DNA from: an uncultured Syntrophomonadaceae bacterium
Lineage (GTDB): Bacteria; Bacillota; Dethiobacteria; DTU022
Direction of reading: 5' to 3'
Length of the DNA stretch: 64,000 bases
NCBI GenBank assembly: GCA_964467475.1
Contig: CAYXQO010000002.1
Coordinates: 57,787 to 121,786, forward strand
The position numbers were made by a program, and so were the translations under genes. This document shows positions 25,302 through 51,060 of this stretch, piece by piece (within the stretch, counting starts at the first letter, position 1; each line of letters opens with the position of its first letter). The notes beneath the pieces were generated by a model. It was not told the origin of the DNA. It searched no databases and saw only the letters and a list, made by a program, of their open reading frames with translations.

Positions 25302-25322
25302 TTTTTTAAGTCCATACGAGCA

Positions 25323-25400: not shown

Positions 25401-25444
25401 ATTACTGAACATTTTTATTAACTAAACTATGCGGAGGCAGAACC

Positions 25445-26891: not shown

Positions 26892-26894
26892 GTT

Positions 26895-33450: not shown

Positions 33451-34034
33451 CCTTTCTCATTAAACCAGGTTGGTACTTGCATCCGTACGAGGAATTCAAA
33501 GAGCAACCCCAGGGGCAACCCGACCACGTTAAAATAACAGCCATCAACCCTATCCACAAACAAAGCGGCGCGTCCCTGGATTCCATATCCTCCGGCCTTG
33601 TCCATCGGTTCGCCGGTAGCGACATAACTGTTGATCTGTTCATCCGTTAATGTTTTCATCCAGACGTAAGTTTTAGCAAAACCGTTTTCAGAAGTACCAG
33701 TATCAGCATTAACCAGCGCAATTCCTGAAAGAACCAGGTGTCTGGTCCCACTCAATTGCCTTAGCATTTGGGCGGCTTCCTCAGTGTTTAAAGGTTTGCC
33801 CAGGACTGAGTTTCCGGATACAACCACTGTGTCGGCAGCCAGGATATACCCGCTTTCAACTTTACCGGAAACAGAAGCAGCTTTCTCGAGGGCAAGCCTG
33901 GTCACCATTTCTTCGCAAGAAACCCCTTCTACCATCTCTTCTGCAATTGATGGCTCAATAACCGTAAACGGGATGCCCACCTGGTGAAGTAATTCCGCCC
34001 GGCGCGGGGAAGCGGAAGCTAGGAAGATATTCAT
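33441..34034 (-). CDS. maf: Maf-like nucleoside triphosphate pyrophosphatase.
   Basis: The sequence MNIFLASASPRRAELL ... is Maf-typical; the gene overlaps the start of radC. Confidence 0.85.
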   Translation of the reverse strand: MNIFLASASPRRAELLHQVGIPFTVIEPSIAEEMVEGVSCEEMVTRLALEKAASVSGKVESGYILAADTVVVSGNSVLGKPLNTEEAAQMLRQLSGTRHLVLSGIALVNADTGTSENGFAKTYVWMKTLTDEQINSYVATGEPMDKAGGYGIQGRAALFVDRVDGCYFNVVGLPLGLLFEFLVRMQVPTWFNEKGWR

Positions 34035-34609
34035 CGCGGAGTACCTGTTCCTGTTTGTTTAATCATTCTGGCCGTCACTCCTTCTAAGTAATTGGCGGCA
34101 AGGCCCGTAAAAATACCGGTAGGCACCGAGAGAAGCATTAAAAAAGGAAAATACCCTTTGAGCAAATCAAAGCTGGCAATAATCATGCTGGCCATGGATA
34201 GTTGGACCAGATTGTGCACGGCTGCCCCGGTAACACTAACTGATAACAGGCTAACCATTCCTTTATTACGAAATAACAACACCAGGGCCATAGCCAGGCA
34301 GCTAATCACCCCGGCGGTTACGCTTAACCAAAACCCAAAACCGAAAAGCCCGCCGACAAATATACTGCCCAATACGGAGCGCAATACAGCCACGAGCAAT
34401 CCGCTGCGCAGGCCGAACAAAATTAAGGTTAGCAAGGTTATGATATTAGCCAGGCCAATGCGAACTCCGGGAACAGGCATCGGTAAAGGCATAGCCGCTT
34501 CCACGGTATGGATAACCACGGCAAATGTAATCAAAAGAGCAATGTAGATTAAATAATTTAAACGGCTTCGCATCTGCAAGCCCGGGTTCTGCATAAATAT
34601 ACCTCGCAA
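34031..34609 (-). CDS. Gx transporter family (heptaprenyl-diphosphate-synthase component I-like) membrane protein.
   Basis: The small polytopic membrane protein has the conserved GxxxG-rich helices typical of the family that co-occurs with ApbE. Confidence 0.5.
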   Translation of the reverse strand: MRGIFMQNPGLQMRSRLNYLIYIALLITFAVVIHTVEAAMPLPMPVPGVRIGLANIITLLTLILFGLRSGLLVAVLRSVLGSIFVGGLFGFGFWLSVTAGVISCLAMALVLLFRNKGMVSLLSVSVTGAAVHNLVQLSMASMIIASFDLLKGYFPFLMLLSVPTGIFTGLAANYLEGVTARMIKQTGTGTPR

Positions 34610-34650
34610 TCGTATCCGCCCTGGAAAACACCCGGGGAACCCTCTGCAGT

Positions 34651-35721
34651 TTAGCGAAGTTCAATGATTTCTTCCAGGCCGCTCGAATACTCTATATCAA
34701 GCTCGGGGGTAACCAAGACTCCCTCTACCCCTTCTTTTTGTTCAATAATTTGCATCCCCTGTTCCCGGCCGAGCACAAAAATGGTCGTGGAAAGGACATC
34801 CGCCTCAAGGACAGAATCGGCGACGATGGTCACACTGGCCAATTCCCTCGCCGGCATTCCGGTTTCCGGGTCAAGGAGATGATGGTAATGAACGCCGTCT
34901 TCCTCAAAAGAGCGTTCATAGTCTCCTGAAGTAGCCACTGCCTTGTCAGAAACAGGAAGAACCGCGAGCATTTTCTGCTCCTGCCTTGGGTTGCGCACTC
35001 CAATACGCCAGGGGTCATCCTCGGGCCTACTGCCGATTAAACCAATATCACCCCCGGCGTTAACAAATGCATGTTCCACTCCATGGTTAGTAAGCACTTC
35101 CATTGCCCTGTCGACAATAAAACCTTTGGCAATACCACCCAACTCGAGAGCCATATCATCCTCAGGCAGGTAAACAGCAGAGTTTTTTTGATCAAGTTCT
35201 ATTTCCCGGTAGTCCACCAGGGTCAGCTTTTGATTAAGCTGTTCTTCAGAGGGAACCCGGTATTCATGGCCCAAAAAACCCCAGGCATCGGTCACAGGGG
35301 CAATTGTAGGATCAAAAGCACCGCCGCTTAATTCGGCATATTCCAACGCTTTTTCAGCAACGTAAAAAACCTCCGGGCTTACCTCCACCGGTTTTTGACC
35401 GGCCTTTTCATTCAAGTTGTAAATATCGCTGTTTTCCAGGGTGCGATCAAACAGGCGTTCCAGACGCTCCATCTCACTAAATACTTCTTCCTTGATCTGT
35501 CCGGCTCTTCTCTCCCCGGTAGTTTGAAAACGAATCTCAACCATAGTATCCATAGTCAGGTGGGTGTAATCATAAGTATTTACCGCATAAAAAGCATTAT
35601 AGTAAAAGTAGCCACCAAGAATTAGCAAGACTACTATGGGAACCATATAAATTGATTTAAGAAATCTATTGTTAAAAATTGCTTTTTTGCTGCTCATTTC
35701 TTGCTGATCTCGCTCGGACAA
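34651..35721 (-). CDS. apbE: FAD:protein FMN transferase ApbE, membrane anchored.
   Basis: It has the ApbE fold (DPTIAPVTDAWG, GGIAKG, TSGDYERSF ... HHLLDPETG) and an N-terminal TM anchor. Confidence 0.8.
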   Translation of the reverse strand: MSERDQQEMSSKKAIFNNRFLKSIYMVPIVVLLILGGYFYYNAFYAVNTYDYTHLTMDTMVEIRFQTTGERRAGQIKEEVFSEMERLERLFDRTLENSDIYNLNEKAGQKPVEVSPEVFYVAEKALEYAELSGGAFDPTIAPVTDAWGFLGHEYRVPSEEQLNQKLTLVDYREIELDQKNSAVYLPEDDMALELGGIAKGFIVDRAMEVLTNHGVEHAFVNAGGDIGLIGSRPEDDPWRIGVRNPRQEQKMLAVLPVSDKAVATSGDYERSFEEDGVHYHHLLDPETGMPARELASVTIVADSVLEADVLSTTIFVLGREQGMQIIEQKEGVEGVLVTPELDIEYSSGLEEIIELR

Positions 35722-35764
35722 ACCTTATCGTTCCACCTTTTTATATTTAACAGCCCAATTAATC

Positions 35765-37720
35765 TTACCGGCCATAATAAAAGATCACTACCATGACTGC
35801 ACCAAGTAATAATGCAAGGATCAATTGATCGAAGTTTAAATTCTTAGAGGTCCACTCTACCGGGTTGAAGCGAAGCCTACGCCTGATCTCCTCTTCTTCC
35901 TCTTCACTTCTTTCACCGGTGCTATCAGCCATTTTCCGCATCGCTTCTCCTGTTTTCAGGTAACCCTCATCAATGCTTTGATCCAGCTGCCTGGAACGGT
36001 CAGCGAAATGACGTGCAGCATCGCCGGTTTTACTGTATCCTTCGTCAATCGCCTGATCCAGGTAACGGGTACGCTCGGCAAGCCCGCGCCCGATTTCCGA
36101 AGAACGCTCAAAAGTTCTGTCAATTCCCCGGTCAAGGGTAGTGATATACTGGCAAAATTCATAAAGCCTCCGGCCTGATTTCATGTAGAGGTTATCTACA
36201 GAGGAATCAATTGTTGAACCGTACTGGCAAAACCGGTTATACATTCTTTGTCCCAGGGGCTTGAAAATGAGGTACTCCACACTAACCCAGGGTGGTAAAT
36301 GAATGCCTTTCTTAAGCAGGTTGGATAAATTTAAGAAAAGCAGCAGCCCGGCTATGCCAAGCTGTGAGGCACCCCAAATCCCGTCAAGGGTGTAAATACC
36401 GGTAACCTTCGAAGCATAAGGAATCAGGGGGGATATTAACTGCGGGTATATTCCCAGGATGATGCAAAATGCAGCTGTCCCAAGAATAGCCACCTGGCCG
36501 GACAAAGGTACTTTATTAGTTATTTTCGCTCGTCCTTTAATAAACCCAAAACCGATTAACTTACAAAATGAAGCTGCCGTGCCAATACTGGCCACCATTA
36601 ACATTATTTCAGCCGGTCCCATATCATAAAAAGCATATTTTAACAGGTACTTACTGACATACCCGTTGAAAAGCGGCATGCCGGCAATAGCCAGGGCCCC
36701 GACAATCCCGCCAAAAGTGACCAGGGGCATAGCTTTCCAAATGCTCTGCTTTTCTTTCTCCTCTTCTTCTGAATCCTCATGGATTAAATCATGCAAATCC
36801 TCTGTTCCCGTGGCATATAAAACCCCGCCCACGCTCATAAACAACAGCGCCTTATAGAGCATATGGTTGACCACGTGCAGAAGCGCTCCATCTGTAGCCA
36901 TTTCGGTCGCCAAACCTACCCCGGCAACCATGTAGCCCACCTGGCTGATAATATGGTAAGACAACAGTCGGCGCATATTATGCTGCAGCATCGCCATGGT
37001 TACCCCGGCAACTGCCATGGAAGCCCCCATGTACATGATCACTTCATTAGGGGGCAGCATCCGGGCAATAGCAAATACACCAATTTTCGTAGTCAACCCG
37101 GCAAGGATTACACTGGAAGGAAAATTAGCCGATGGATACCCGCGGGCCACCCACAAATGAAAGGGCAGAAAAGCTGCTTTGAATCCAAAGCCGAGAATGA
37201 AAAAGGGCAGCCCGGCCTGGGGCTGGGTTAACATAAAATTTCCGGCCTCTTGGAAATGAAGGAGAATCCCCAGTAATACGATTAACCCGCCAGCTAAGTG
37301 AAAGGAAAGAAAATATAGCCCGGCATAACTTGCCTCCGGGGTTTTCCGCAACAAAATCAACCCGGCTGTAGACAAAGTAAGCATTTCCCAGAAAATAAAA
37401 AGAGTAATAAAATTATCGGAAAACACAATTCCGATGGCACTGGCCAGAGCGGCCAGGGCAACGGCTTGTTCGCTTGGCTTAGATAGCTGAAGCCCGTAAA
37501 GCAGGGATAAAGAACCGACCAGGGTAAACCCAAGCACAGCTATCCTGCTGTAGGAATGTTCGTCAAAAGAGATCGGGGCCAGCACTGCATCGCCCAGCAC
37601 AAGCCGCCCCAGCTCCACACCGGTCCAATCGTAGTAGGCAAGGTAAAGCAGGGCACCGATTACACCCAGCATTAAAAAGTATCTTAAACCCCTCGGCCCT
37701 AACAGAACACCGGGGATCAA
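35765..37720 (-). CDS. Divergent MrpD/NuoL-like proton-pumping antiporter subunit with a long C-terminal extension.
   Basis: It has the PF00361-type 14-TM core, but the WLPDAH motif is replaced by HLWVARGYPSANFPSS. There is an acidic insertion (HEDSEEEEKEKQ). A C-terminal hydrophilic extension of about 170 aa holds three copies of a 25-aa repeat of the form LDxxIDEGYxKTGxAxR and ends in a single TM helix (NLNFDQLILALLLGAVMVVIFYYGR). Confidence 0.7.
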   Translation of the reverse strand: MIPGVLLGPRGLRYFLMLGVIGALLYLAYYDWTGVELGRLVLGDAVLAPISFDEHSYSRIAVLGFTLVGSLSLLYGLQLSKPSEQAVALAALASAIGIVFSDNFITLFIFWEMLTLSTAGLILLRKTPEASYAGLYFLSFHLAGGLIVLLGILLHFQEAGNFMLTQPQAGLPFFILGFGFKAAFLPFHLWVARGYPSANFPSSVILAGLTTKIGVFAIARMLPPNEVIMYMGASMAVAGVTMAMLQHNMRRLLSYHIISQVGYMVAGVGLATEMATDGALLHVVNHMLYKALLFMSVGGVLYATGTEDLHDLIHEDSEEEEKEKQSIWKAMPLVTFGGIVGALAIAGMPLFNGYVSKYLLKYAFYDMGPAEIMLMVASIGTAASFCKLIGFGFIKGRAKITNKVPLSGQVAILGTAAFCIILGIYPQLISPLIPYASKVTGIYTLDGIWGASQLGIAGLLLFLNLSNLLKKGIHLPPWVSVEYLIFKPLGQRMYNRFCQYGSTIDSSVDNLYMKSGRRLYEFCQYITTLDRGIDRTFERSSEIGRGLAERTRYLDQAIDEGYSKTGDAARHFADRSRQLDQSIDEGYLKTGEAMRKMADSTGERSEEEEEEIRRRLRFNPVEWTSKNLNFDQLILALLLGAVMVVIFYYGR

Positions 37721-37879
37721 TAACAGTGGTATGCCTATACCCGCTATAACAAATATGTCGATTTCTCATCACTCCATTACAATGCGATTCTGCTTAACAT
37801 TGTTGTAGTTGATATACTCGATAAAGTCAAGCATAGCATAATTTATTTTTTGTTTTACTATGTCTACTCGGCCAAAAAC

Positions 37880-39916
37880 TTAATTACCATAAGAAAATAC
37901 TATGAATAAGATAATTCCAAGGACAAACGCCAAGAGCAAGTTGTCAAAATTAAGGTTTTTAATATTCCATTGCTCCTGGTCCCACCAAAACAAACTGCTC
38001 CTGAACTGCTCCTGCAAACGCCGTTCCCGCTCCGGTCCTTTTCCGGTTATATAATATGCCGACTGGCCTGCTTCATCAAGTGACTGTTCTGGTATAAGCT
38101 CCTTTTCTCCTGGCACATGAGAATCCCATTCGTTCTCACTTTCACTGTGGTCATAAAATTGTCCCAGGGCCATGTCATCTATATTAACTTCACGAAAGAA
38201 AAATGACAGGACCAAACGCGGCAACGGTTGAAATATCAATCTTTGAATGCTTAACCAGGGAGGCGGTGTCCATTCAAACCAGCCTCTTGAAACTCCCGGC
38301 AAATAAATAAACAAAGATAATAGAACTACAACCAGCATCGCCTCCAGGGGATGCCATTCAAAAAACTGGAAGCTAAAGAGATAATCAATGCTGGATCCGG
38401 CAAAATCAAGCAAACGCGCAGCGGGCAAAATCAGCCTATCCAGGAGAAAGTTCGGGAAAATCCCGATACCAAGTACCAGGGCAGCAAAAATAATAATCAC
38501 AAAATTAACCGATGGCGGGATACGGTAATCCTGATCAAGTTTTTCCGGAACCGGCCCCAGAAAAACCCCCTGGAAAAGCTTTATAAAGTAGCATATCGTT
38601 AAAGCGCTGGTCACCATAAAAAAGCGCTCGGCTACATAAATCCCGTAAATATCATAATACTGGTGCGCCTCTAATAAAGAATCATGCACCAAAGTCTTGC
38701 TGGCAAACCCGTTAAATCCAGGTATTCCGGCAATCCCGAGGGCTGCGATAACAAAAGTAACTGCTACTACCGGCATTTTCCGTGCCATACCACCCAGGCG
38801 GGACAAATCCAGTTCGTGGGTATACATATAAACCACCCCGATCATGGCAAAAAGTCCGGCCTTAAATATGGCATGATTGGCAATATGGTACAGCGATCCG
38901 GAAAAACCCATCGTTCCTTCAGCCCCCATAAACATGGCTACGCCGATCCCTGTAACAATATAGCCCATCTGACTGATGCTGCTGAAAGCCAGGATCCGTT
39001 TGGCGTTGCCTTGTAAAATGGCCATTAAAGCTCCAGCCAACATGGTAATTATGCCAACCCACATCAAGATATAGCCCGAACTGAAAATAAATGACCAGTC
39101 AGCTTCGGAGAGTGCCCCTGCCGGCTGAAATAGCACCAAACTTACCCGCAGGATACCGTAAGCGCCCGCTTTGATCATGATCCCCGACAAGAGAGCACTA
39201 GCCGGTGAGGGAGCTACCGGGTGAGCCAGGGGCAACCAGATGTGCAGGGGAACTATCCCGGCCTTAATTCCGAAACCAACCATAAACAAAAGCAGGATGG
39301 CCGTTCGCTGATTGCCGATTTCTTCCAAAGCAGGGACCATATTGAGGTGCCCCACATTACCGTAAAGCAATAAAATGGCAAACAGTAGGGAAAGACCACC
39401 GATAATGGCCATGTACAGGTATAACGAACCGGCCTGCAGCGCTTCCTGGTTTTGTTTATGGATAACCAGGACAAAGGAACTGAAGGTCATTATTTCAAAA
39501 AAGATAAACAGGGAAAAGAAGTCGCCGGCAAATACTACACCTAATATTGACCCGAGGGTAAAGATAAAAAAACTGTAATAACGACACAGGTTGTGCTCAA
39601 AATCCATATAGGCAAAGGAAAAGATCGTGGCCAATACCCAGATCAAGGTAATCAGAAAAGCAAACGTCCAGCCGATTAAATCAATGTTGAAGTACAGGTT
39701 GAATTGCATCAGTTCAATCAAATCACAGCACACTTCACCGGCAAAGACCATCGGTAAAAGCCAGATAACACCGGCAAGAGAAAAAAGTGATGCAGAAAGA
39801 ACTCCAGCCTTGCGGATCAACATTTTTTCATCAGGGACAAAATAGAGCGCTATACCGGTTAACATGGGAACTATAACCAGAAACAACGGTATATAAGTGC
39901 TGAAGGTTACCTCCAC
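37880..39916 (-). CDS. MrpD/NuoL-like antiporter subunit with a C-terminal extension.
   Basis: It has the canonical motif (PLHIWLPLAHPVAPSPASALLSGIMIKAGAYG). A C-terminal extension of about 200 aa ends in a TM helix (NLNFDNLLLAFVLGIILFIVFSYGN) homologous to the terminal helix of the downstream paralogue. Confidence 0.75.
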   Translation of the reverse strand: MEVTFSTYIPLFLVIVPMLTGIALYFVPDEKMLIRKAGVLSASLFSLAGVIWLLPMVFAGEVCCDLIELMQFNLYFNIDLIGWTFAFLITLIWVLATIFSFAYMDFEHNLCRYYSFFIFTLGSILGVVFAGDFFSLFIFFEIMTFSSFVLVIHKQNQEALQAGSLYLYMAIIGGLSLLFAILLLYGNVGHLNMVPALEEIGNQRTAILLLFMVGFGIKAGIVPLHIWLPLAHPVAPSPASALLSGIMIKAGAYGILRVSLVLFQPAGALSEADWSFIFSSGYILMWVGIITMLAGALMAILQGNAKRILAFSSISQMGYIVTGIGVAMFMGAEGTMGFSGSLYHIANHAIFKAGLFAMIGVVYMYTHELDLSRLGGMARKMPVVAVTFVIAALGIAGIPGFNGFASKTLVHDSLLEAHQYYDIYGIYVAERFFMVTSALTICYFIKLFQGVFLGPVPEKLDQDYRIPPSVNFVIIIFAALVLGIGIFPNFLLDRLILPAARLLDFAGSSIDYLFSFQFFEWHPLEAMLVVVLLSLFIYLPGVSRGWFEWTPPPWLSIQRLIFQPLPRLVLSFFFREVNIDDMALGQFYDHSESENEWDSHVPGEKELIPEQSLDEAGQSAYYITGKGPERERRLQEQFRSSLFWWDQEQWNIKNLNFDNLLLAFVLGIILFIVFSYGN

Positions 39917-39957
39917 CGATAAAAACCACCTTTACCACGGGTTTATTTTAACAAAAC

Positions 39958-41508
39958 CTAAAATATTCCCCCTTCCAAGAAAAACACAGTCGTAAGTTGA
40001 GATAAATCAAAGGGAATATTTAACGGCGTCAATCCGAAAATAAACGTGCATAATGCTAAAATTATCAGCGGAGCCAGCATTTTCGGGGTCGCATCCTGGA
40101 CTTTCAACTTAAGGGCAGATACTTGCGTTTGATTATGCCCGTGAGAACCTCCTTCGGCAGCCTCGCTTTCACCAATAATCTCGAAAAATGCCGGCACAAT
40201 GATCGGCAGATAATAAAGAGCATTCAATAGACTGCTAATTAAAAGGACCACAGCATATATAGTTAAATTGGCGTCAAGGGCCCCCAATCCCAGGGTCCAT
40301 TTACTCAGAAATCCACTTAAAGGAGGAATGCCGATCATAGCCAGGGCTGCTATGGAAAAACAGGCCATTGTATAAGGCATTTCCCTGCCGATGCCGCCCA
40401 TTTCCGAGATCTGCCTCTTTCCTGTCTTCCATATTATAGCACCGGCTGCAAGGAAGAGACAACTTTTCATGATTGCGTGGCTAAATATATGAAACATGGT
40501 CCCGGTAAGGGCATTCTCATTAAGAATACTCAAGCCTATAAGAACATATCCCATCTGCCCGACACTGGAGTAGGCAAGGCGGCGTTTAATATCATTCTGG
40601 GTTAAGGCCACAGCAGAACCCAGAAGGGTGGTGACCACCGCCAGGACCCCGAGGATTATGTCCCAATTATTCACCTGCATTATTTCAATCGAAAAGGCGT
40701 TAAAAACCACCCTGAAAAGCCCATAAGCTCCGGTTTTCAGCATTACTCCCGACAAAAGGGCGCTGGCCGGTGATGGAGCAACGGGGTGCGCATCCGGAAG
40801 CCAGACATGCAGCGGAAACATACCAGCTTTCATGCCGAATCCAATCACAAAACAGGCAAACGCCAGAAAGGAAAGGAAGGTGACTTCTTCGATAATAGAA
40901 CCTACCCCGAGTGAAACGGTGCCACCAAGCTCAAAAGTAATGATAATCCCTAGGAACAGAGCCAAACCGCCAATGATTGTCATCACCAGGTACTTGTAAC
41001 CAGCCTTTAAGGCCTGTTCTGTTTCTTCATGCACCACCAAAATATAAGAGATTAAAGACATTAATTCGAAAAACACAAAGAGGGTAAAAAAGTCACCGGC
41101 AAAGAATATCCCCAGGCAACTGCCGAGAGTAAACATCAACACCGGGTAATAACGGTCGCCTCCGTGCTCCTCGGCCATATAATCCAGGGAATAAATTGTG
41201 CAGAGGAACCAGATAAAGGAGGCAATTGCCCCAAGGCTAAAACTTAAAATATCGAGCCTGATCGAAATCTCCAGGTTTGGGAGAATTTCAAAAAGGGTCA
41301 ACTGGATTACATCGCCCCGCATCACTACCGGAAACAAGGAAAGGGTTAAAACAAAAGTGACTGCGCTAGTCAATAAAGACAAGGCATTTCTTAATTTATC
41401 CGAGCGGCCCCCGGCCGACATAATTACCGGGGTCATTACTATTGGAAATAAAATCACAAATAGTATTACCGCAATTGCTGTTGCTTCATCCACCGAAGCC
41501 ACCTCCAA
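39958..41508 (-). CDS. mrpD: MrpD/NuoM/N-like antiporter subunit.
   Basis: The 516-aa protein carries FPLHVWLPDAHPVAPSPASALLSGVMLKTGAYG. Confidence 0.8.
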   Translation of the reverse strand: MEVASVDEATAIAVILFVILFPIVMTPVIMSAGGRSDKLRNALSLLTSAVTFVLTLSLFPVVMRGDVIQLTLFEILPNLEISIRLDILSFSLGAIASFIWFLCTIYSLDYMAEEHGGDRYYPVLMFTLGSCLGIFFAGDFFTLFVFFELMSLISYILVVHEETEQALKAGYKYLVMTIIGGLALFLGIIITFELGGTVSLGVGSIIEEVTFLSFLAFACFVIGFGMKAGMFPLHVWLPDAHPVAPSPASALLSGVMLKTGAYGLFRVVFNAFSIEIMQVNNWDIILGVLAVVTTLLGSAVALTQNDIKRRLAYSSVGQMGYVLIGLSILNENALTGTMFHIFSHAIMKSCLFLAAGAIIWKTGKRQISEMGGIGREMPYTMACFSIAALAMIGIPPLSGFLSKWTLGLGALDANLTIYAVVLLISSLLNALYYLPIIVPAFFEIIGESEAAEGGSHGHNQTQVSALKLKVQDATPKMLAPLIILALCTFIFGLTPLNIPFDLSQLTTVFFLEGGIF

Positions 41509-41589
41509 GATTCTTTGTAAATTCCTTTATTTACTGTGATAGCTATATATAATATTATTAGCTTCCTCAACTATTAAAGTTTATTACTA

Positions 41590-43436: not shown

Positions 43437-43437
43437 A

Positions 43438-43869
43438 TTAATCTTCCCCCTCGATAATGTGAAAGAAAAAGCTCACAATAGTGCTTGCTACCTTAAACCC
43501 GAGAAAAACTGTAATGATCATGATCGCACCAGAACTGAAAAGTTCTCCTGCTTCTCCCATGGGAAATCCGGCAGCCCGGTTGGCCAAAAAATGCCCTCCA
43601 ACCGCTACACTCACCAGACCGGTTAACACAAACCCGAGAGCACCGCCGCTTTCCAGGATGGAAGAAACATCTTCAGAAATCTGCCTGGCTCCCACTTCGA
43701 GGTTAAAAGACACGGCTAAAAGAACAAGGCTAGCGCCAAAAATTGCGCCTCCGGAAAAACCACCCCCCGGGGAAAGATGGCCGTGCAGCACAATATAAAT
43801 CCCATACAATTGAATAAACGGCACCACAAGCCTGCTGGTGATGCGAACAATTTGGTCTTCCAGGGTCAT
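43438..43869 (-). CDS. mrpB: MrpB/MnhB domain subunit (MbhF-like).
   Basis: It carries the MnhB signature HGHLSPGGGFSGGAI. Confidence 0.75.
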   Translation of the reverse strand: MTLEDQIVRITSRLVVPFIQLYGIYIVLHGHLSPGGGFSGGAIFGASLVLLAVSFNLEVGARQISEDVSSILESGGALGFVLTGLVSVAVGGHFLANRAAGFPMGEAGELFSSGAIMIITVFLGFKVASTIVSFFFHIIEGED

Positions 43870-43879
43870 CTACCCCCAT

Positions 43880-44218: not shown

Positions 44219-44242
44219 TTAAATATCCCCCTCACAGGATCC

Positions 44243-44503: not shown

Positions 44504-44807
44504 TCCTGCCTATTTGAGGCTTGATTCCTGTCGAGTAAGCGACCCGGGCAATAACATGGGCTGCCGTCGGGTTGGTAATTAAAACAAAAATAATCAGTAG
44601 AGCAAGCCTGATCGCCACCGCCATTTCACTTTGCAGGGCAAGAGAAAGCAGCACCAAACCGGCTCCGAGTGTATCGCACTTGGAGGTGGCATGCAGACGG
44701 TTGTATACATCGGGCAGGCGCAGCAAACCTACTATAGCGACAACCAGGAAAAAAAGACCGATGATCATTGATATTATTGACAATATCTGCAAAATAGTTT
44801 CCAGCAT
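44487..44807 (-). CDS. mrpG: MrpG/MnhG subunit.
   Basis: It contains GLLRLPDVYNRLHATSKCDTLGAG, the PhaG/MnhG signature. Confidence 0.75.
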   Translation of the reverse strand: MLETILQILSIISMIIGLFFLVVAIVGLLRLPDVYNRLHATSKCDTLGAGLVLLSLALQSEMAVAIRLALLIIFVLITNPTAAHVIARVAYSTGIKPQIGRSDSND

Positions 44808-44815
44808 CGCGTTAG

Positions 44816-45097
44816 TTAATCCAGCGCCCCTTTCTCCAGGTACTTAGCCACTCCAATGGTGAAAATAAAACCCATTAAAGCGTAAATCATGGCAATATCA
44901 AGAAAGTAAACCTGTTCATAGATCCTGGCTATTAGGGTAATAATAATCAGGGTGTTTGTTGTAATGATGTTGACAGCGACAACCCGGTCAGGCGCCGTAG
45001 GCCCAGCAAGCGCCCTGATCATGGCAACAAATATTGTCAACATAACCAGGATAGCTCCTAACGGGAACAATATATCAAGGATTTGTTCATAAATCAC
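44816..45097 (-). CDS. mrpF: MrpF/MnhF subunit.
   Basis: The 93-aa protein has three TM helices and the MrpF-like sequence ALAGPTAPDRVVAVNI. Confidence 0.7.
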   Translation of the reverse strand: MIYEQILDILFPLGAILVMLTIFVAMIRALAGPTAPDRVVAVNIITTNTLIIITLIARIYEQVYFLDIAMIYALMGFIFTIGVAKYLEKGALD

Positions 45098-45591
45098 TAC
45101 TTACCGCCCTCCATATCCTTGAGCCTGGCCATTAGGTGCCAATCCTTTATTGCCTTGCCAGTTTCTTTGGTAAGAGCATGCACCAAAAAATCTTTTTCGT
45201 CGGCAAGGACTGTTAATGTGCCCGGACACATAGTGATAGAATTACCCAGCAGTGTACGGCTGCCCATGCTTTCCAGATCCACCTTTACCGGAACCAGGTT
45301 CGGATAGATTGGCATCTTCGGGTGTAAAACCAGCCAGGCAATCTGGAAATTGGCAATGAATATTTCTTTAATCAAAATAAGTAGATACCCGATCAACCAG
45401 AAAACATTCTTTATTGTAACCGGAGGCCTGTCCCGGTCCCCAATCAAAAGGTTCCGGTTGAAATAAACCACAAATACAGACGATACAAAACCGACGATGA
45501 GTTGCGGAATGTCAAAAGAACTACTCACGGCAACCCAAAAAGCAATAAAAATTAGGGTAAAACCAATATAATTCAGCCAATCTTTTTTCAT
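45097..45591 (-). CDS. mrpE: MrpE/MnhE subunit.
   Basis: The 164-aa MnhE-like protein has two N-terminal TM helices and a soluble C-terminal domain. Confidence 0.7.
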   Translation of the reverse strand: MKKDWLNYIGFTLIFIAFWVAVSSSFDIPQLIVGFVSSVFVVYFNRNLLIGDRDRPPVTIKNVFWLIGYLLILIKEIFIANFQIAWLVLHPKMPIYPNLVPVKVDLESMGSRTLLGNSITMCPGTLTVLADEKDFLVHALTKETGKAIKDWHLMARLKDMEGGK

Positions 45592-45667
45592 AAGTATCCG
45601 CCACCTGGAACCTAATGGTTTAATATAATAAATATTTCACATGCTAACAAGCAAATTAAATCCCAAA

Positions 45668-46573
45668 CTAAACGCTTTTGCCCGAAGACGTTGCTTTTGC
45701 CGGTTCTTCATCTGCTTCCTTACCTTCATCCGGCATAATCGGTAGTACTGTCCGCGGATATATTGTTCCCGGTGGGCAAACCGGAACACATTTGCCGCAG
45801 TCGTCGCATTTATCAATATCAATAACCGCAAGCCTGTCATCCATCTCAATCGCTTCCTGGGGACATTCTTTGACACAAGCCCGGCAGCCAATACAGCCCA
45901 CGGTACATGCTTTAGAAACTGTTTTGCCCCGATCATGGGAACTGCACAGGACCAGATGCCCCTGGCCTGAACGGCGGGGTAAAGTTTTCAACAAATCCCT
46001 GGGGCATGCCTCTACACACAGCCCACAACCGGTGCAAGCTTCCGGGTCGACAATCGGCAGACCATGCGAACCGATTTCTATTGCTTCAAACGGGCAGACC
46101 CTAACACAGTTACCCAAACCAAGACAGCCATAACCGCAAGCTTTAAAGCCCCCGTTGAATTTGCCGGCCACCTCACAGTCTTGAACCCCGTCATATATGA
46201 ACAAATCAGCTGCTTTTTTATTATCCCCAATACAGAAAAGTGTAGCTATAAGCGGTTCCGAGTCGTCTACTTCAAGACCCAGCTCTTCAGCGATAGCCCG
46301 GGTGGTTTCTTCCCCGCCGGGTATACATGCATTAGCTGCTGCTTCCCCTTTAACAACCGCCGCCGCAAAATTAACACAACCGGCATAACCGCAAGCTCCA
46401 CAATTAGCTCCGGGTAATATATCATTAACTGCATCCACTCTCGGATCAGTTTTTACCGCAAAAACCCGTGCTGCAATAGATAACAGCAGCCCAAAAAGAA
46501 GGCCGATTAACCCTAAAGCAACAATTGCATATGCTATCTGCACGTTCCAACTCACCTCACCCATATTTAACAA
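45668..46573 (-). CDS. rnfB: Rnf complex subunit B (polyferredoxin).
   Basis: It has an N-terminal TM helix followed by multiple CxxCxxCxxxCP [4Fe-4S] motifs. The likely start is MGEVS. Confidence 0.85.
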   Translation of the reverse strand: MLNMGEVSWNVQIAYAIVALGLIGLLFGLLLSIAARVFAVKTDPRVDAVNDILPGANCGACGYAGCVNFAAAVVKGEAAANACIPGGEETTRAIAEELGLEVDDSEPLIATLFCIGDNKKAADLFIYDGVQDCEVAGKFNGGFKACGYGCLGLGNCVRVCPFEAIEIGSHGLPIVDPEACTGCGLCVEACPRDLLKTLPRRSGQGHLVLCSSHDRGKTVSKACTVGCIGCRACVKECPQEAIEMDDRLAVIDIDKCDDCGKCVPVCPPGTIYPRTVLPIMPDEGKEADEEPAKATSSGKSV

Positions 46574-46585
46574 TAAATTCTTCGC

Positions 46586-47167
46586 TTAGAGCGTTAGCAT
46601 TCCCTTAAAGCCAAGGAAGGCCAACGACAATATACCGGCAGTAATTAAAGTGACCGCGGAACCCTGCAGAGCTTCCGGAATTTTTGCCATCTCCAATCTT
46701 TCCCGGATACCGGCCATTATTACAAGGGCCAGTGAAAAACCAATTGAAGCGGCAAGGCCAAAAACAACTGCTTCAACAAAAGTAAATTCTTCCCTGACAG
46801 CAAGCACCGCAACCCCCATAATCGCACAATTCGTGGTAATTAAAGGTAAAAAGATCCCCAGGCCCTGGTACAGGGTAGGACTTATTTTACGCATCGCTGT
46901 TTCAACCAGTTGAACCAGGGAGGCAATAACCAAAATGAAAGTTACAATCTGTAAGTATTCCAGTTGATATGGCATTAATACAAAAGTATAAAGAATCCAG
47001 GTTACAATTGTGGCCATAGTCATGACAAAAATTACAGCCATGCTCATGCCTATCGCTGTTTCCATTTTACGAGAAACCCCGATAAACGGGCATATCCCCA
47101 GGAAACGTTGCAAAACAAAATTATCAACCAAAATATAGATAAAAATTATTGCCAGCAGTCTTTCCAT
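46586..47167 (-). CDS. rnfA: Rnf complex subunit A.
   Basis: It is an RnfA/NqrE-type six-TM protein (FLGICPFIGVSRK). Confidence 0.85.
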   Translation of the reverse strand: MERLLAIIFIYILVDNFVLQRFLGICPFIGVSRKMETAIGMSMAVIFVMTMATIVTWILYTFVLMPYQLEYLQIVTFILVIASLVQLVETAMRKISPTLYQGLGIFLPLITTNCAIMGVAVLAVREEFTFVEAVVFGLAASIGFSLALVIMAGIRERLEMAKIPEALQGSAVTLITAGILSLAFLGFKGMLTL

Positions 47168-47236
47168 AATAACCTCCTGCTACCGGTTATTTTATTTAAG
47201 TATTAATTTAAACTTTCAAGCTCATCCCGGTTTAAT

Positions 47237-47866
47237 TTATTTGATATTAAACTTCTTAAATATCACGTTAAAGATACCCAACAATAGTCCCAGGGCAATA
47301 AATGCACCCGGCGGTTGGGCAAAAAGGCCCATTGGTTCAAATTCTGGTCCAAAAAGGTGGACAGCACTTTCCGGGTCGGGCCCCATCAGGGTACCGTGTC
47401 CGGCAACTTCACGAACAAAAGATAATATCCCCAGGGCCAGGGTAAAACCAAGGCCAACCCCGATACCATCAATCAAAGAACGAAGTACCGGCTGTTTGCC
47501 TGCAAAAGCTTCGGCCCTGCCCAGTATAACACAGTTAACTACGATTAAGGGAACGAAAATGCCTAAAGCTTCATGAAGTGCGGGCTGATAAGCCTCTAAA
47601 ACCATATCAATTATAGTTACAAATGTTGCGATCACTACAATAAAGCAGGGTATTCGCACCTGAGGCGGGATAAATTGTTTGAGACTGGAAATCACCACAT
47701 TTGAAGCAACCAGCACTGCGGTTGCAGCAATTCCCATCCCCAGTCCGTTTATAAAAAAGGCAGTAACCCCCAACACCGGGCACAATCCCAAGAGTAATTT
47801 GAAAACCGGGTTTTCGCGAATAATACCCCGGGTTAAGTCTTGAATATAAACACTTTTATTATTCAT
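47237..47866 (-). CDS. rnfE: Rnf complex subunit E.
   Basis: It is an RnfE/NqrD-type protein (LLLGLCPVLGVT). Confidence 0.85.
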   Translation of the reverse strand: MNNKSVYIQDLTRGIIRENPVFKLLLGLCPVLGVTAFFINGLGMGIAATAVLVASNVVISSLKQFIPPQVRIPCFIVVIATFVTIIDMVLEAYQPALHEALGIFVPLIVVNCVILGRAEAFAGKQPVLRSLIDGIGVGLGFTLALGILSFVREVAGHGTLMGPDPESAVHLFGPEFEPMGLFAQPPGAFIALGLLLGIFNVIFKKFNIK

Positions 47867-48713
47867 CTAAACTGTCACCTCCACTGCCTTCTTCCAACGG
47901 TGCGCCGTTAAGAGCATTTTCCACGGCAAATATTATCCTTTCAGCGCTTAATGTAGCTCCGGTTTGCGTATCTACATTAAGGCTCTGTTCTTCTATAATT
48001 CTTTCTGGAATTAAAGGATAAGATTCAACAAAATAAGCATCGGTTTCATGCTGTTCAACAATCTCAATCCGATTAATTATGCCATTTAAAACTTCAACCT
48101 CGGCTGTCAATATACCCCTGGTTCCTTCCACACTGCCAAGGTATACACCGTCATCCACGGAAGGAAGGTTCAAACCAGCTCCTTCCTTATCCAGGAAGTT
48201 TTCACCAATAGTAATTACCGTGCGTCGCACAGAACTGATCACCGAACCGGTGCTTTCCGTCGCTCCACTGACAGTATCAACATCTTCACCGGCCTGGATA
48301 GGATCCTCATAACCTTTGCCAATAAATTGCTCCTGGAACTCGTCGGTAGTAATCACGTCACCAATCCCGGGAGTTTCAGAATGCCCCGTAACTATTATCC
48401 CTTTGATCTCACCTTCATCATCTACCGCAAGGTTATAGGATATCTCACCTTCATACCCATAGGTGGTAACCGTGGCCATGATCCCCATCAAATTAGCATC
48501 TTGATCGTAAACAAGATCATATGTATCTCCGTCTATTTCTTCGGATTCATAATCGGCAAGCTCGGGAAAAAACTGTTCAAGAGCCTCGATATATTCTCTT
48601 TGCTCTCTTTCTTTAATAACCGGTTCGGTAATGTTGTGAATCCCGGTAAGAAGCGCAGCGGACATTACCGCAATTAGTGCCAGAACCATTGAAAGACGAA
48701 CAATATCACGCAC
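47859..48713 (-). CDS. rnfG: Rnf complex subunit G with two FMN-binding domains.
   Basis: It has an N-terminal TM helix and two FMN_bind-like modules. The flavinylation-type motifs are DTVSGATESTGSV and DTQTGATLSAERI. Confidence 0.8.
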   Translation of the reverse strand: MRDIVRLSMVLALIAVMSAALLTGIHNITEPVIKEREQREYIEALEQFFPELADYESEEIDGDTYDLVYDQDANLMGIMATVTTYGYEGEISYNLAVDDEGEIKGIIVTGHSETPGIGDVITTDEFQEQFIGKGYEDPIQAGEDVDTVSGATESTGSVISSVRRTVITIGENFLDKEGAGLNLPSVDDGVYLGSVEGTRGILTAEVEVLNGIINRIEIVEQHETDAYFVESYPLIPERIIEEQSLNVDTQTGATLSAERIIFAVENALNGAPLEEGSGGDSLDE

Positions 48714-49680
48714 TTTTTTTCACCCCCCCAAACTGCTGGGGTATTGTAAAGTTATCAATTATCGGGGTCACTGCATTCATCATTAATATAGCAAAGGAAA
48801 CCCCTTCCGGGTAGGTTCCCCATAACCTGATCAACATTGTAAACAACCCGCAGCCAATCCCAAAAATTAATCGTCCGGCAGGGGTAACCGGGGTGGTGAC
48901 CATATCAGTGGCCATAAAGATAGCCCCGATCATCACCCCTCCGGCAAGCACATGGAACAACCCGGTCAACAGATAATTCTCGTAAAACCCGCCTCCAAAA
49001 ATTGTCCCTAAAACAAAAACAGTGCCGATAAATCCGCCGGGTATACGCAAATCAATATGGCCCCGGTAAGCAAGCCATATTCCTCCGATAAGCAAGGCCA
49101 GGGAGGAAGTTTCCCCTAACGAACCGGCAATATTGCCAATAAATATTTCCGGCAAGCTGAAAGCCAGGGCCTCCTGGGGGGCAGCTAAAACAGTTGCCCC
49201 GGTAACAGCAGAAATATCGGCGGTCAGCGCAAACGGTTGGGGCATAGGCCAGATGTCACCGGCCATGTGGCCGCCCCAGGAAACAACCAGGATCGCCCGA
49301 CCAACCAGGGCCGGGTTGAAAATATTATAGCCTATCCCCCCAAAAACCTGCTTACCAATAATGATTGCCGAGGCTGAGCCCAGAACAACCACCCACCAGG
49401 GCACCACAGGGGGCAGGGTCATCGCTAAAAGCAACCCGGTAACAGCGGCGCTGCCGTCTCCCAGGATGTTGCGATTTTTAAGCCACAGTGCTTCAACCAG
49501 CATGGCAACTACCATCGAAAGGACCATAATCATAAGGGCACGGTATCCAAACAAAAGCACAGCCATCAGGGCAGCCGGGAACAGCGCGATTAAAACATCA
49601 AACATTATGCTTTGCACTGATTCGCTTGTGCGTATATGCGGTGAAGAAGATACGATTAATTTTTCGCTAATTACAATCAC
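48706..49680 (-). CDS. rnfD: Rnf complex subunit D.
   Basis: It is an RnfD/NqrB-type polytopic protein with a flavinylation-site context (SGATVLAAP). Confidence 0.85.
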   Translation of the reverse strand: MIVISEKLIVSSSPHIRTSESVQSIMFDVLIALFPAALMAVLLFGYRALMIMVLSMVVAMLVEALWLKNRNILGDGSAAVTGLLLAMTLPPVVPWWVVVLGSASAIIIGKQVFGGIGYNIFNPALVGRAILVVSWGGHMAGDIWPMPQPFALTADISAVTGATVLAAPQEALAFSLPEIFIGNIAGSLGETSSLALLIGGIWLAYRGHIDLRIPGGFIGTVFVLGTIFGGGFYENYLLTGLFHVLAGGVMIGAIFMATDMVTTPVTPAGRLIFGIGCGLFTMLIRLWGTYPEGVSFAILMMNAVTPIIDNFTIPQQFGGVKKSA

Positions 49681-49701
49681 TTCCCTTCCCCGAGCAATAA
49701 A

Positions 49702-51060
49702 CTATTTACCTTGCTGTTTTCTCCTTTTCATAATTTCGGCTTTGGCAATTCTGATCCACTGGGTTAAAGGTATTTTGGAAGGACAGACATATGAACAGCA
49801 GCCGCACTCAAAACAATCCAGCGCATACAATTTTTCCGCTTTCTTATAATCGCCAAATTCTGAAACCTGAGCAATCAAGGTTGGCATCAATTGAACCGGG
49901 CAGGCATCCACACACTTAGCACAACGAATACAGGGGCTGCTTTCAACCAGGTGCACATCCTCTTTTGTGAGAGCAAGGATACCGGAAGTTCCCTTGATTA
50001 CCGGAATCTCAGAGGTAGGTTGGGCAAGCCCCATCATCGGGCCGCCAACCACCAGCTTAGCCGTCGATTCCTTAAGGCCTCCACAGTAATCGAGCAATTC
50101 CGCCGCGAGTGTTCCCAGCCGGACCTGCAGATTCTTCGGTTCTTTGATGCCGGAACCGGTAACTGTAATGACCCGCTCAACCAAAGGCTTGCCTTCGCGG
50201 ATTGCCCTGGCAACAGCTACTGCCGTACCTACATTATGGTTAACAACCCCGACCTCAAGAGGCAGGGCCCCTTCAGCAGGGACCACCCTCCCGGTGGTCG
50301 CATAAATCAACATCTTCTCCGCCCCCTGCGGATATTTTGTATGCAGGGGACATACCTGGATGTTATCTTCTTCGGCAACCATTTTTTCCATTACTTCTAA
50401 GGCATCGGGCTTGTTGTCTTCAATGCCGATGATCCCTCTTTCGGCACCAAGTGCCTTGATCATCGCCTTTAGGCCGAATAAAATCTCTTCCGGCTTTTCA
50501 AGCATTACCCGGTGGTCTCCAGTCAGGTATGGCTCGCATTCAGACCCATTTATGATCACCACATCAATCGGCTTGTCTTCCGGGGGAGAAAGTTTGACAT
50601 GGGCAGGGAAAGTCGCTCCACCTAACCCTACAATGCCGGCTTCCCTGACTATTTTACGAATATCTTCTGCTGAGAGTTCGTCAAGATTGCCTCCGGGCTG
50701 TAAACTTTCATCCCATTCATCCTTACCATCTGATTCAATTGTAACCGCATTAATTTTTACCCCAAGCGGATGATTGTACATGCCAATATCAGTCACCGTC
50801 CCGGAAATAGAAGAATGAACCGGAGCGGAAACAAACCCCTGGTTGTCACCTAATTTTTGACCGGCTTTCACCAGGGTCCCCTTTTCAATTTTCTCAACAT
50901 CGGCCAGAAGCTCGCAGGGAGCACCGATATGCTGCTGCATCGGGATAACCACTTTCTGTGGAAGCGGCATCTTTTCAATGGGCGTCGAGGCGGTATAGTT
51001 CTTTTTATCCTCGGGATGGACTCCACCTTTGAATAGTTCTTTAACCATTCCCTGAATCAC
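49702..51060 (-). CDS. rnfC: Rnf complex subunit C.
   Basis: It has an NADH/FMN-binding region (GLGGATFPAHVKL) and two C-terminal [4Fe-4S] motifs (CIRCAKCVDACP, CFECGCCSYVCP). Confidence 0.9.
   Translation of the reverse strand: MIQGMVKELFKGGVHPEDKKNYTASTPIEKMPLPQKVVIPMQQHIGAPCELLADVEKIEKGTLVKAGQKLGDNQGFVSAPVHSSISGTVTDIGMYNHPLGVKINAVTIESDGKDEWDESLQPGGNLDELSAEDIRKIVREAGIVGLGGATFPAHVKLSPPEDKPIDVVIINGSECEPYLTGDHRVMLEKPEEILFGLKAMIKALGAERGIIGIEDNKPDALEVMEKMVAEEDNIQVCPLHTKYPQGAEKMLIYATTGRVVPAEGALPLEVGVVNHNVGTAVAVARAIREGKPLVERVITVTGSGIKEPKNLQVRLGTLAAELLDYCGGLKESTAKLVVGGPMMGLAQPTSEIPVIKGTSGILALTKEDVHLVESSPCIRCAKCVDACPVQLMPTLIAQVSEFGDYKKAEKLYALDCFECGCCSYVCPSKIPLTQWIRIAKAEIMKRRKQQGK

Follow-up and report, generated by a model that had tools for sequence, protein, structure and literature searches.

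An Mrp-type multisubunit antiporter gene set between the Rnf and apbE genes of an uncultured Syntrophomonadaceae bacterium

In a 64,000-nucleotide (nt) stretch of DNA from an uncultured Syntrophomonadaceae bacterium (GenBank assembly GCA_964467475.1, contig CAYXQO010000002.1, positions 57,787 to 121,786), hereafter called the window, a large set of Mrp-type antiporter genes lies between the structural genes of an Rnf complex and the flavin transferase gene apbE. The block (34031-51060) comprises 19 genes, not 20 as counted in a preliminary description of this DNA, namely six for Rnf, eleven of Mrp type (seven small subunits plus four Proton_antipo_M proteins, which we call D1, D2, D' and D''), apbE, and a gene for an ECF-S-like membrane protein, Gx. 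Pfam scans confirmed the order rnfCDGEAB-Mrp-apbE-Gx, the coordinates and the shared minus strand given in that description. We put at roughly 60% the probability that the locus encodes a co-expressed pair, in which Rnf acts as the primary pump and Mrp as an electrogenic antiporter for pH and sodium homeostasis.

According to this reading, an 11-gene Mrp cassette would have been inserted into an older rnfCDGEAB-apbE-Gx operon between folC and maf-radC, giving one expression unit in which Mrp is flanked by the Rnf structural genes on one side and the Rnf maturation genes on the other. Rnf would oxidise reduced ferredoxin with NAD+, export cations (most likely Na+) and build up a membrane potential, while ApbE would attach flavin mononucleotide (FMN) to one site in RnfD and two sites in RnfG, and Gx would probably support flavin maturation of Rnf. 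The Mrp proteins would form a complete antiporter that needs no redox partner and that spends the Rnf-made membrane potential, with, as we infer, several H+ entering per cycle and Na+ leaving. The outcome would be a cytoplasm less alkaline and lower in sodium than the soda-lake medium, achieved without a known proton-pumping respiratory chain. For an anaerobe that has a Na+ ATP synthase but lacks a proton pump, the potential generated by Rnf would be the sole force drawing protons against the inverted pH gradient, and four proton channels per sodium site would make the exchange strongly electrogenic and possibly able to sustain a pH difference beyond that of a 2:1 exchanger. A transcript shared with Rnf would match antiporter capacity to pump activity, and, through internal promoter-like elements, Mrp and D''-apbE-Gx could probably be expressed additionally or separately.

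Rnf, its flavinylation and the position of the Mrp genes in relatives

All six Rnf subunits are encoded in one cluster, in the order C-D-G-E-A-B (Pfam). RnfD carries a flavinylation motif (AVTGAT, at residue 160) and RnfG, which unusually has two FMN-binding domains, carries two (DTVSGAT and DTQTGAT). Across the block, motifs of this kind ([ST]GA[TS]) were limited to the single site in RnfD and the two in RnfG, and a scan of the Mrp subunits returned none. The proposal that apbE encodes the flavinylator of RnfG and RnfD is thus borne out, these being the only motif-bearing proteins of the block, and it follows that the Mrp genes sit between the pump and its maturation factor.

Among solved structures, RnfE is best matched by subunit E of the Na+-Rnf of Acetobacterium woodii (E = 6e-63), and its residues R71 and E119 align to the gating ion pair of that protein (9eri_E), which is R67/E115 in A. 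woodii numbering (PMC11889175). Rnf ties the oxidation of ferredoxin by NAD+ to the export of cations, and in A. woodii it is Na+ that moves through RnfA/E (PMC11889175). The ion pair was discarded as an indicator of Na+ versus H+ specificity, as an R/E pair is also present in the Azotobacter enzyme and hence does not discriminate.

The Rnf-Mrp adjacency recurs in related genomes. Twelve further contigs, all from a single clade, have Mrp genes between rnfB and apbE, the Mrp genes following rnfB in L003, L004, L006, L007, L034, L088-L092, L094 and L097 (L numbers denote the loci compared here; the order Mrp before apbE was counted wherever the contig extends that far). Across the twelve, identity goes down to ~48% for RnfB and ~31% for MrpE. 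A search with the long D protein yielded the order Rnf-(moaC)-Mrp-ApbE-Gx-Maf-RadC in L003, L004, L006, L007 and L034, and an RnfB search of metagenomes yielded Mrp right after rnfB in the other seven contigs (L088-L092, L094, L097; RnfB ~52-90%). In many Mrp-less relatives, Gx is found between rnf/apbE and maf-radC; arrays of the form rnf-(apbE)-Gx-maf-radC without Mrp, with RnfB at 41-51%, are present in L095, L096, L099, L101-L103, L108, L124, L127, L128, L139, L142 and L165. The simplest history suggested by these gene orders is that an older rnf-apbE-Gx-maf-radC array took up an Mrp cassette between rnfB and apbE. In deeper branches the cassette opens with moaC, the end of which overlaps the start of mrpE (L003, L004, L008). 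In the window clade moaC, which sits between rnfB and mrpE in several relatives, is gone and a 76-88-nt spacer stands in its place. The number of D genes is three in L004, L034, L094 and L008, four in the window, L088, L007 and L003, and five in L006, and the genes further downstream vary as well, with mreBCD in L003 and L004 and a radical-SAM gene in the window.

The genome of L034 holds a second Mrp cluster (L087, 3051-14897; B-C-D-E-F-G-MbhD-MbhE-D-D-D-D-D, with six antiporter-like genes) that is not beside rnf, which makes the Rnf-linked copy of that genome an additional one. Candidates for an independent Rnf-Mrp association were rejected. L059 (Omnitrophota) is an ordinary group-4 NiFe hydrogenase locus (NuoH/B/C/D-like) with rnf convergent beside it; in L012 only RnfC- and RnfD-like genes, whose operon also encodes a 4Fe-4S and a molybdopterin-binding protein, are convergent to a differently ordered Mrp; and Natranaerofaba (L005) and Dethiobacter (L086) each have a lone D-like gene.

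The Rnf genes themselves show some variation among these loci. RnfG with two FMN domains also occurs in L093, L088 and L097, and the RnfG of the deeper relatives L003, L004 and L034 has ~176 amino acids (aa) and matches the first part only (~60% coverage). The Rnf-Mrp cluster of L094 (1-3924) is without rnfG, the rnfD match ending at 1828 and the rnfE match starting at 1831. At 15645-21364 of L086 (Dethiobacter sp.), FMN_bind, RnfC, RnfD, UbiA, a Rex-like regulator and Ni_hydr_CYTB are encoded, with no RnfA/E/B; a similar set, 'RnfC, D, G only', has been reported for 'Ca. Syntrophonatronum acetioxidans'.

A T-box leader in the window points to Bacillota. An exact look-up of MrpE gave no match, and one of D'' located the identical protein on two ENA metagenome contigs, both of which share the gene order of the block. 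The closest species representatives are two Syntrophomonadaceae metagenome-assembled genomes (MAGs) labelled CSSed16..., with 62-94% protein identity across the block. Judging by the names, the CSSed16 label would stand for Cock Soda Lake sediment and the contig name SL_5KL_010_SED for soda-lake sediment, and the host is probably a soda-lake anaerobe. On the basis of one published genome and the MAG names, the Rnf-Mrp clade is assigned to the Dethiobacteria. The published genome is that of 'Ca. Contubernalis alkaliaceticus', an obligately syntrophic alkaliphile of this class, for which Rnf (HUE98_01685-01710), a multisubunit Na+/H+ antiporter (HUE98_01720-01765) and a Na+-type ATP synthase c subunit were reported (PMC10608574). 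The tag numbering leaves one gene between the Rnf and antiporter sets; the paper passes over this adjacency without comment, and it uses two names for one set of genes, an antiporter and a 'putative membrane part of NADH:quinone oxidoreductase' (PMC10608574). It is the nearest account that we found, a search of full-text open-access papers having returned no description of an Rnf-Mrp operon, and a 2025 review of Rnf/Nqr mentions neither Mrp nor antiporters (PMC12174285). Mrp antiporters, which take H+ in and move Na+ out, are central to pH homeostasis in alkaliphiles (PMC10404738).

Composition and fold of the Mrp module

The gene order E-F-G-MbhD-MbhE-B-C-D-D-D'-D'' corresponds, as the preliminary description had recognised, to the Mrp module of Mbh (equivalents of MbhA-H). 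This order does not by itself imply a respiratory membrane arm, given that Hungatella hathewayi has a stand-alone multi-D cluster of the same kind, again free of hydrogenase genes, with an integrase upstream, choline-binding proteins downstream and no hydrogenase. Among species-representative genomes, the order E-F-G-MbhD-MbhE-B-C-D-D-(D)-long D is found in many Lachnospiraceae, Oscillospiraceae, Actinomycetota and Margulisiibacteriota, and the flanks of these clusters gave no rnf matches. Since hydrogenase-free multi-D clusters are widespread as stand-alone Mrp, the Mbh-type order is no evidence for a respiratory arm; and since the same architecture is present in non-alkaliphilic gut Clostridia, the multi-channel design is not specific to high pH.

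The block encodes counterparts for each of the seven Mrp functions (A-G). E, F, G, B and C are recognised by Pfam, D1 and D2 are MrpD-like, the N-domain of MrpA is represented by D' and D'', and its C-domain by MbhD and MbhE, which jointly align to ~606-790 of the MrpA family models (NCBIfam). The lack of an MrpA noted previously is therefore only nominal, as the long D proteins model as NuoL/MrpA-type and MbhD plus MbhE match the MrpA C-terminal domain. MrpA is present as separate genes, as in Mbh, but with the lateral helix fused to the long D proteins; the classical mrpABCDEFG operon form with a single fused MrpA is not seen here. With respect to Mbh, Mbx and Mbs, the MbhA-H order is there, and the catalytic and connecting subunits (NuoB/C/D, NiFe, NuoH, NuoI-like) are absent from the block, its neighbours and the further window genes scanned. 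Of the complex I membrane arm, only NuoK-like (MrpC) and NuoL/M/N-like genes are present, and no block gene matched NADHdh (PF00146). The absence of hydrogenase, formate dehydrogenase and NuoH-like genes was upheld among the 19 genes, the flanks and the other window open reading frames (ORFs) scanned, and NuoB/NuoD-like genes were likewise not found among the 19 genes, the flanks and the subset of window ORFs scanned. None of the Mrp proteins reaches an NCBIfam equivalog cut-off, so that a precise subfamily name cannot be given; the MnhB subfamily model alone passes its cut-off.

The four MrpD-like proteins had been described as pumping subunits, and a check of the channel residues agrees with this, all four keeping the Glu of transmembrane helix (TM) 5 and the Lys of TM7, TM8 and TM12, an assignment to helices that we take from what is known of NuoL/M/N and MrpD. 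The residues are E152, K236, K267 and K412 in D1, E148, K227, K258 and K403 in D2, E141, K218, K249 and K407 in D', and E112, K181, K212 and K357 in D''.

D' and D'' share, after the core, a P-W-[LV]-S motif, a hydrophilic linker, a near-invariant WNIKNLNFD and one C-terminal hydrophobic helix. In D', a PPWLS..R motif is followed by a ~94-residue linker without repeats, WNIKNLNFD and the C-terminal transmembrane helix; in D'', the linker consists of four repeats of ~22-25 residues (D..ID..Y.K[ST]G), of which homologues carry 1-6. Outside the Rnf-linked clade, L008 alone showed the motif of the repeat-bearing C-terminal linker, P.W.S.E ... KNLNFD. We looked for a relation between linker length and the number of D genes and found none, linkers being 139-200 residues long with three, four or five D genes. 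Both long proteins have MbhH as their best solved sequence match (6cfw_H for D'). The AlphaFold model of D'' (predicted local distance difference test, pLDDT, 81; predicted template modelling score, pTM, 0.76) has a 14-helix core, an extra transmembrane helix (445-471), long helices at 481-546 and 554-599 and an anchor helix at 630-650, the repeat/lateral region reaching a pLDDT of only 40-70. Foldseek placed MrpA on top (9a6h_A, 7qru_A, 6z16_A, 7d3u_A), and 600-675 columns were aligned to full-length NuoL/NdhF. The D' model (pLDDT 78) shows the same layout at lower confidence, with an extra transmembrane helix at 523-547, a C-terminal helix at 657-677 and low-confidence helices at 564-595, 611-623 and 627-642. 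As modelled, D' and D'' are NuoL/MrpA-type proteins with an extra helix, lateral helices and a C-terminal anchor.

Signals in the spacers and weighing of the readings

With 46 of the 61 large window ORFs on the minus strand, shared direction alone is weak evidence for joint transcription. The same-strand run extends past the block, downstream into maf and radC, the frames of which abut or overlap the preceding gene (the Gx/maf overlap is 4 nt), and upstream into folC and valS. As for the long spacers listed in the preliminary description, the 76 nt between rnfB and mrpE stand, but a D1-D2 spacer of 81-96 nt (depending on the start codon) had been overlooked, and the 160 nt reported between D' and D'' are most likely ~117 nt, given a conserved ATC start with a GGAGTGAT ribosome-binding site at 37762. 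A terminator between rnfB and mrpE had been named as a point that would speak against a common unit; no terminator-like site is present there or in any other spacer of the window block, and RNA folding of the rnfB-mrpE, D'-D'', D''-apbE and apbE-Gx spacers was no better than that of shuffled sequence (z -0.2 to -0.6).

We consider it most likely that D'' starts at this non-canonical ATC and that gene callers place the start 14 codons too late, because the ATC, GGAGTGAT and the N-terminal peptide are conserved in four species. The ATC follows GGAGTGAT by 9 or 10 bases and opens the peptide IDIFVIAGIGIPLL, which agrees with the N-terminus of homologues and is conserved through synonymous changes; D'' has 665 aa from the ATC and 651 aa from the TTG at 37720.

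Both promoter-like strings quoted earlier (TTGCTT-17-TTATTA and TTGACT-17-TACAAC) are found in the sequence. The former is overlapped by a 20-nt block (Table 1), the core of which, GCAT[GA]TGAAA..[AT]TTATT, is invariant in five species, the remaining spacer being variable, and which is unique within the window with up to 3 mismatches allowed. This block may be the -10 region of an internal promoter and/or an operator. The Rex operator has the consensus TTGTNAA-N4-TTNACAA, and the block GCATGTGAAAnAnTTATTA before mrpE agrees with it, by eye, at ~10 of 14 positions, which is a lead only. For the element in the D'-D'' spacer, TTGAC[TA]-17-TA[CA]AAC, the window, L088, L006 and L007 retain both hexamers at the 17-nt distance and differ in the sequence between them. 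The cross-species conservation of the two elements means that a portion of the block may additionally have transcripts of its own. Taken with a hairpin after rnfB in L092 (below), these patterns argue that internal starts would add to read-through transcription and in some species might even take its place.

A number of observations weigh against co-expression of an Rnf pump with an Mrp antiporter devoted to pH and sodium homeostasis. The conserved promoter-like blocks before mrpE and D'' permit separate transcription, and in L092 a perfect 10-bp hairpin (AGAACAGGGC-AACTA-GCCCTGTTCT) directly 3' of rnfB (1465-1585) may separate rnf and mrp transcriptionally in that species. L093 (RnfB 62%, RadC 78%) has rnfCDGEAB-apbE-Gx-maf-radC without Mrp, and L008 has moaC-Mrp-ApbE-Gx-Maf-RadC with no rnf within 3.7 kb upstream of moaC; together, these two indicate that the Rnf-Mrp link is favoured, not obligatory. 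The same Mrp architecture stands alone in the non-alkaliphilic gut Clostridia, and the ion specificity of Rnf is not readable from its sequence.

Some of these observations would also suit an alternative that we regard as unlikely, namely that the adjacency is accidental, a moaC-mrp cassette having landed after rnfB and been inherited vertically, with Mrp as a general antiporter under its own promoter. It is favoured by the conserved promoter- or operator-like block before mrpE in the window clade, by the hairpin after rnfB in L092, by the overlap of moaC with the mrpE start, which makes moaC-mrp resemble a unit of its own, and by the cassette without rnf in L008 and rnf without the cassette in L093; moreover, a single insertion event may underlie all instances. 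However, the arrangement outlasts a divergence at which many neighbour genes changed, and the Mrp genes of the window come between Rnf and the ApbE-Gx pair with no terminator-like site in the spacers. Unless the block were read through, selection would disfavour any insertion that impaired expression of the maturation genes, which counts against an accident, as does the fact that Rnf is the candidate primary source of membrane potential for such an antiporter in these organisms (PMC10608574).

That Rnf and Mrp form a physical supercomplex, in which a multi-antiporter arm on RnfA/E/D would be coupled mechanically or electrostatically in a complex-I-like manner, appears rather improbable to us. 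The position of Mrp between the structural and the maturation genes of Rnf is kept over deep divergence, the separate stand-alone Mrp in the genome of L034 suggests a dedicated role for the Rnf-linked copy, and the gene order equals that of the Mrp module of Mbh, which docks on a redox module. Yet a NuoH/MbhM-like or other candidate connecting subunit was not found among the block genes, such Mrp antiporters function alone in known systems, the cluster type exists without Rnf, moaC intervenes between rnfB and mrpE in several relatives, and each partner is found without the other (L093, L008). The energetics would also be demanding, in that the transfer from ferredoxin to NAD+ would provide ~35 kJ per electron pair, ~2 Na+ would use this up, and little would be left to drive four more channels. 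Quite improbable is a still more specific version, a single Rnf-Mrp machine in which the variable-length repeat helices of D' and D'' act as a clamp and which couples Na+ export to H+ import at a fixed ratio at extreme pH.

We consider it very improbable that the Mrp family generally partners with ApbE-dependent flavinylated extracytoplasmic proteins in an undescribed flavin-linked membrane system, although three loci invite the idea. In L014 (Firmicutes bacterium UBA994, 2821-5091), the gene immediately ahead of mrpE encodes a two-FMN_bind protein (35% identity with the window RnfG, covering 96% of its length) and itself follows a gene for a DsbD-type membrane protein, other rnf genes being absent; in L047 (Clostridia bacterium SUG1085, 2780-13159), a stand-alone Mrp is followed directly by apbE, and rnf, Gx, maf and radC were not detected at this locus; and L008 has Mrp-ApbE-Gx without rnf. 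These are three cases only, each of them explicable as the remnant of an rnf-apbE array, no Mrp subunit has a flavinylation motif, and ApbE was not seen near most stand-alone clusters. Finally, the idea that the Mrp-like genes are the membrane arm of an oxidoreductase encoded elsewhere (a NuoEFG-type or formate dehydrogenase module), for which one can cite the homology of the antiporter-like subunits and MrpC to NuoL/M/N/K and the double naming of the genes in PMC10608574, is hardly credible, as the window and the relatives examined have no NuoH/A/B/D/I equivalents in or near the cluster, MrpE, F and G are restricted to Mrp and Mbh-type modules, and every known complex-I-type enzyme needs the NuoH/B/D junction.

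The locus in its surroundings and among known systems

The features of the block are collected in Table 1. In the public gene call of the identical ENA contig, rnfB has 291 aa with its start at 46543 and the mrpB/MnhB-like gene has 128 aa; NCBIfam gave no match for Gx. The surroundings are a housekeeping region, with valS-folC upstream and maf-radC, the radical-SAM gene, DUF2344 and RNase G downstream.

Table 1. Genes and putative control elements of the Rnf-Mrp block (window coordinates)
Feature	Coordinates	Strand	Basis
rnfC, 452 aa, NADH-side subunit	49702-51060	minus	Pfam RnfC_N, Complex1_51K, SLBB, Fer4
rnfD, 324 aa	48706-49680	minus	Pfam NQR2_RnfD_RnfE, E = 7e-110
rnfG, 284 aa	47859-48713	minus	Pfam FMN_bind in two stretches
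rnfE, 209 aa	47237-47866	minus	Pfam Rnf-Nqr
rnfA, 193 aa	46586-47167	minus	Pfam Rnf-Nqr
rnfB, longest ORF 301 aa	45668-46573	minus	Pfam FeS and several Fer4
conserved 20-nt block GCATGTGAAATATTTATTAT in the 76-nt rnfB-mrpE spacer	45625-45644	minus	cross-species comparison
mrpE-like, 164 aa	45097-45591	minus	Pfam MNHE; NCBIfam subunit E models below cut-offs
mrpF-like, 93 aa	44816-45097	minus	Pfam MrpF_PhaF
mrpG-like, 106 aa	44487-44807	minus	Pfam PhaG_MnhG_YufB
MbhD/DUF4040-like, 86 aa	44243-44503	minus	Pfam MbhD; ~606-690 of MrpA NCBIfam models
MbhE-like, 112 aa	43880-44218	minus	Pfam MbhE; ~680-790 of MrpA models
mrpB/MnhB-like, 143 aa ORF	43438-43869	minus	Pfam MnhB; NCBIfam NF006248, 99.5 bits (cut-off 92)
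mrpC/NuoK-like, 122 aa	43068-43436	minus	Pfam Oxidored_q2; NCBIfam subunit C models
D1, short MrpD/NuoN/M type, ~492-500 aa	41590-43092	minus	Pfam Proton_antipo_M
D2, short type, ~511-516 aa	39958-41508	minus	Pfam Proton_antipo_M and Proton_antipo_N
D', long NuoL/MrpA-N type, 678 aa	37880-39916	minus	Pfam Proton_antipo_M
TTGACT-17-TACAAC promoter-like element, D'-D'' spacer	37802-37830	minus	cross-species comparison
D'', long NuoL/MrpA-N type	35765-37762 (37720 by TTG start)	minus	Pfam Proton_antipo_M
apbE flavin transferase, 356 aa, N-terminal membrane anchor	34651-35721	minus	Pfam ApbE, E = 3e-93
Gx, ECF-S-like membrane protein, 187-192 aa	34031-34609	minus	Pfam Hpre_diP_synt_I; ECF_trnsprt below cut-off

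Elsewhere in the window, the T-box leader upstream of leuS (18633-18924, minus strand) has an 86-nt insertion in the stem III loop, where the model expects ~7 nt; the insertion is itself a full-scoring tRNA (18680-18754; Rfam, 68.9 bits), identified by ARAGORN as tRNA-Ala with anticodon GGC. A single 557-aa ORF at 8085-9758 (minus strand) joins an RNase H domain (5-143) to a phosphofructokinase domain (193-497), and at 24200-28022 (plus strand) a molybdenum/tungsten cofactor riboswitch is followed by genes for an ABC-type binding protein, an ABC ATPase and a MOT1-family transporter.

The Rnf-Mrp operon is apparently undescribed and is conserved in one clade. The idea that the two systems cooperate is already known from Methanosarcina acetivorans and from metabolic models, as separate units. 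How strict anaerobes without a proton-pumping respiratory chain keep a near-neutral, low-sodium cytoplasm at pH 9.5-10 and molar sodium is poorly understood, and a large antiporter, probably of high electrogenicity, that is encoded in a conserved operon amid the genes of the sole respiratory pump would be a concrete, testable answer. An 'Rnf plus Mrp' design has been proposed for engineering Caldicellulosiruptor bescii (PMC8269263), for which the locus offers a natural template. If Rnf and Mrp were physically joined, this would be a new solution in the evolution of modular respiratory complexes, and if they formed one machine, a second, independent complex-I-like multi-antiporter build, with Rnf instead of a hydrogenase or quinone module as the redox engine. 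The clade also provides a series, with three, four or five antiporter-like subunits and lateral-helix linkers of 1-6 repeats, that should help to study how stoichiometry in the complex I/Mrp superfamily depends on the lateral helix and on channel number.

Set beside known systems, the Mrp part resembles stand-alone clusters such as that of Hungatella hathewayi WAL-18680 (L021), which have the same gene order, likewise lack a hydrogenase and carry multiple D genes, the last of them long (722 aa in L021); a similar stand-alone type, 'MrpEFGBBBCD, MrpDD', was reported for NPL-UPA2 bacterium Unc8 (PMC6305446). In contrast to the window set, these clusters are not beside rnf, apbE or Gx, and their proteins are only ~30-50% identical to it. 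The classical Mrp antiporters of Bacillus pseudofirmus (7QRU), Anoxybacillus flavithermus (6Z16) and Dietzia (7D3U) have all the functional modules found here, and D'' superposes on their MrpA; they differ in gene order, in having MrpA in one piece where it is split into three or more genes in the window, and in having one MrpA and one MrpD instead of two short and two long antiporter-like subunits. The Mrp-derived order is shared with Mbh/Mbs of Pyrococcus furiosus (6CFW, 6U8Y), where MbhA-H correspond to E, F, G, MbhD, MbhE, B, C and D. The window set has four antiporter-like subunits and, unlike Mbh, no MbhJ-N equivalents (NiFe, NuoB, NuoH, NuoI-like); L059 is a real Mbh locus for contrast. 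In Mbh the lateral helix is on a separate protein, MbhI, whereas here it is fused to the long D proteins.

The Thermococcales are known to have clusters in which a hydrogenase-type pump is combined with an Mnh/Mrp module, and the formate hydrogenlyase-Mnh cluster Fdh2-Mfh2-Mnh2 of Thermococcus onnurineus brings together a primary redox pump and an Mrp/Mnh antiporter for gradient conversion. The pump there is a hydrogenase of the complex I family with Mrp-like subunits, whereas Rnf belongs to an unrelated family. In the nqr operon of Vibrio cholerae, as here, the maturation genes (apbE and nqrM) trail the structural genes, apbE being co-transcribed with them (PMC12174285); unlike here, no antiporter genes lie between the two groups. 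A functional parallel concerns Methanosarcina, which has a classical mrpABCDEFG with one MrpA and one MrpD, and an Rnf with a cytochrome c subunit. In Methanosarcina acetivorans, a Na+-pumping Rnf works with a multisubunit Mrp that adjusts the Na+/H+ balance; cooperation of the two was proposed by Jasso-Chavez et al. 2013, as cited in PMC10553843, and co-regulation of Rnf and Mrp has been reported (PMC2838876). The two are described as separate gene sets in Methanosarcina, whereas in the window Mrp lies inside the rnf-apbE operon, with E-F-G first, a split MrpA and four antiporter-like subunits.

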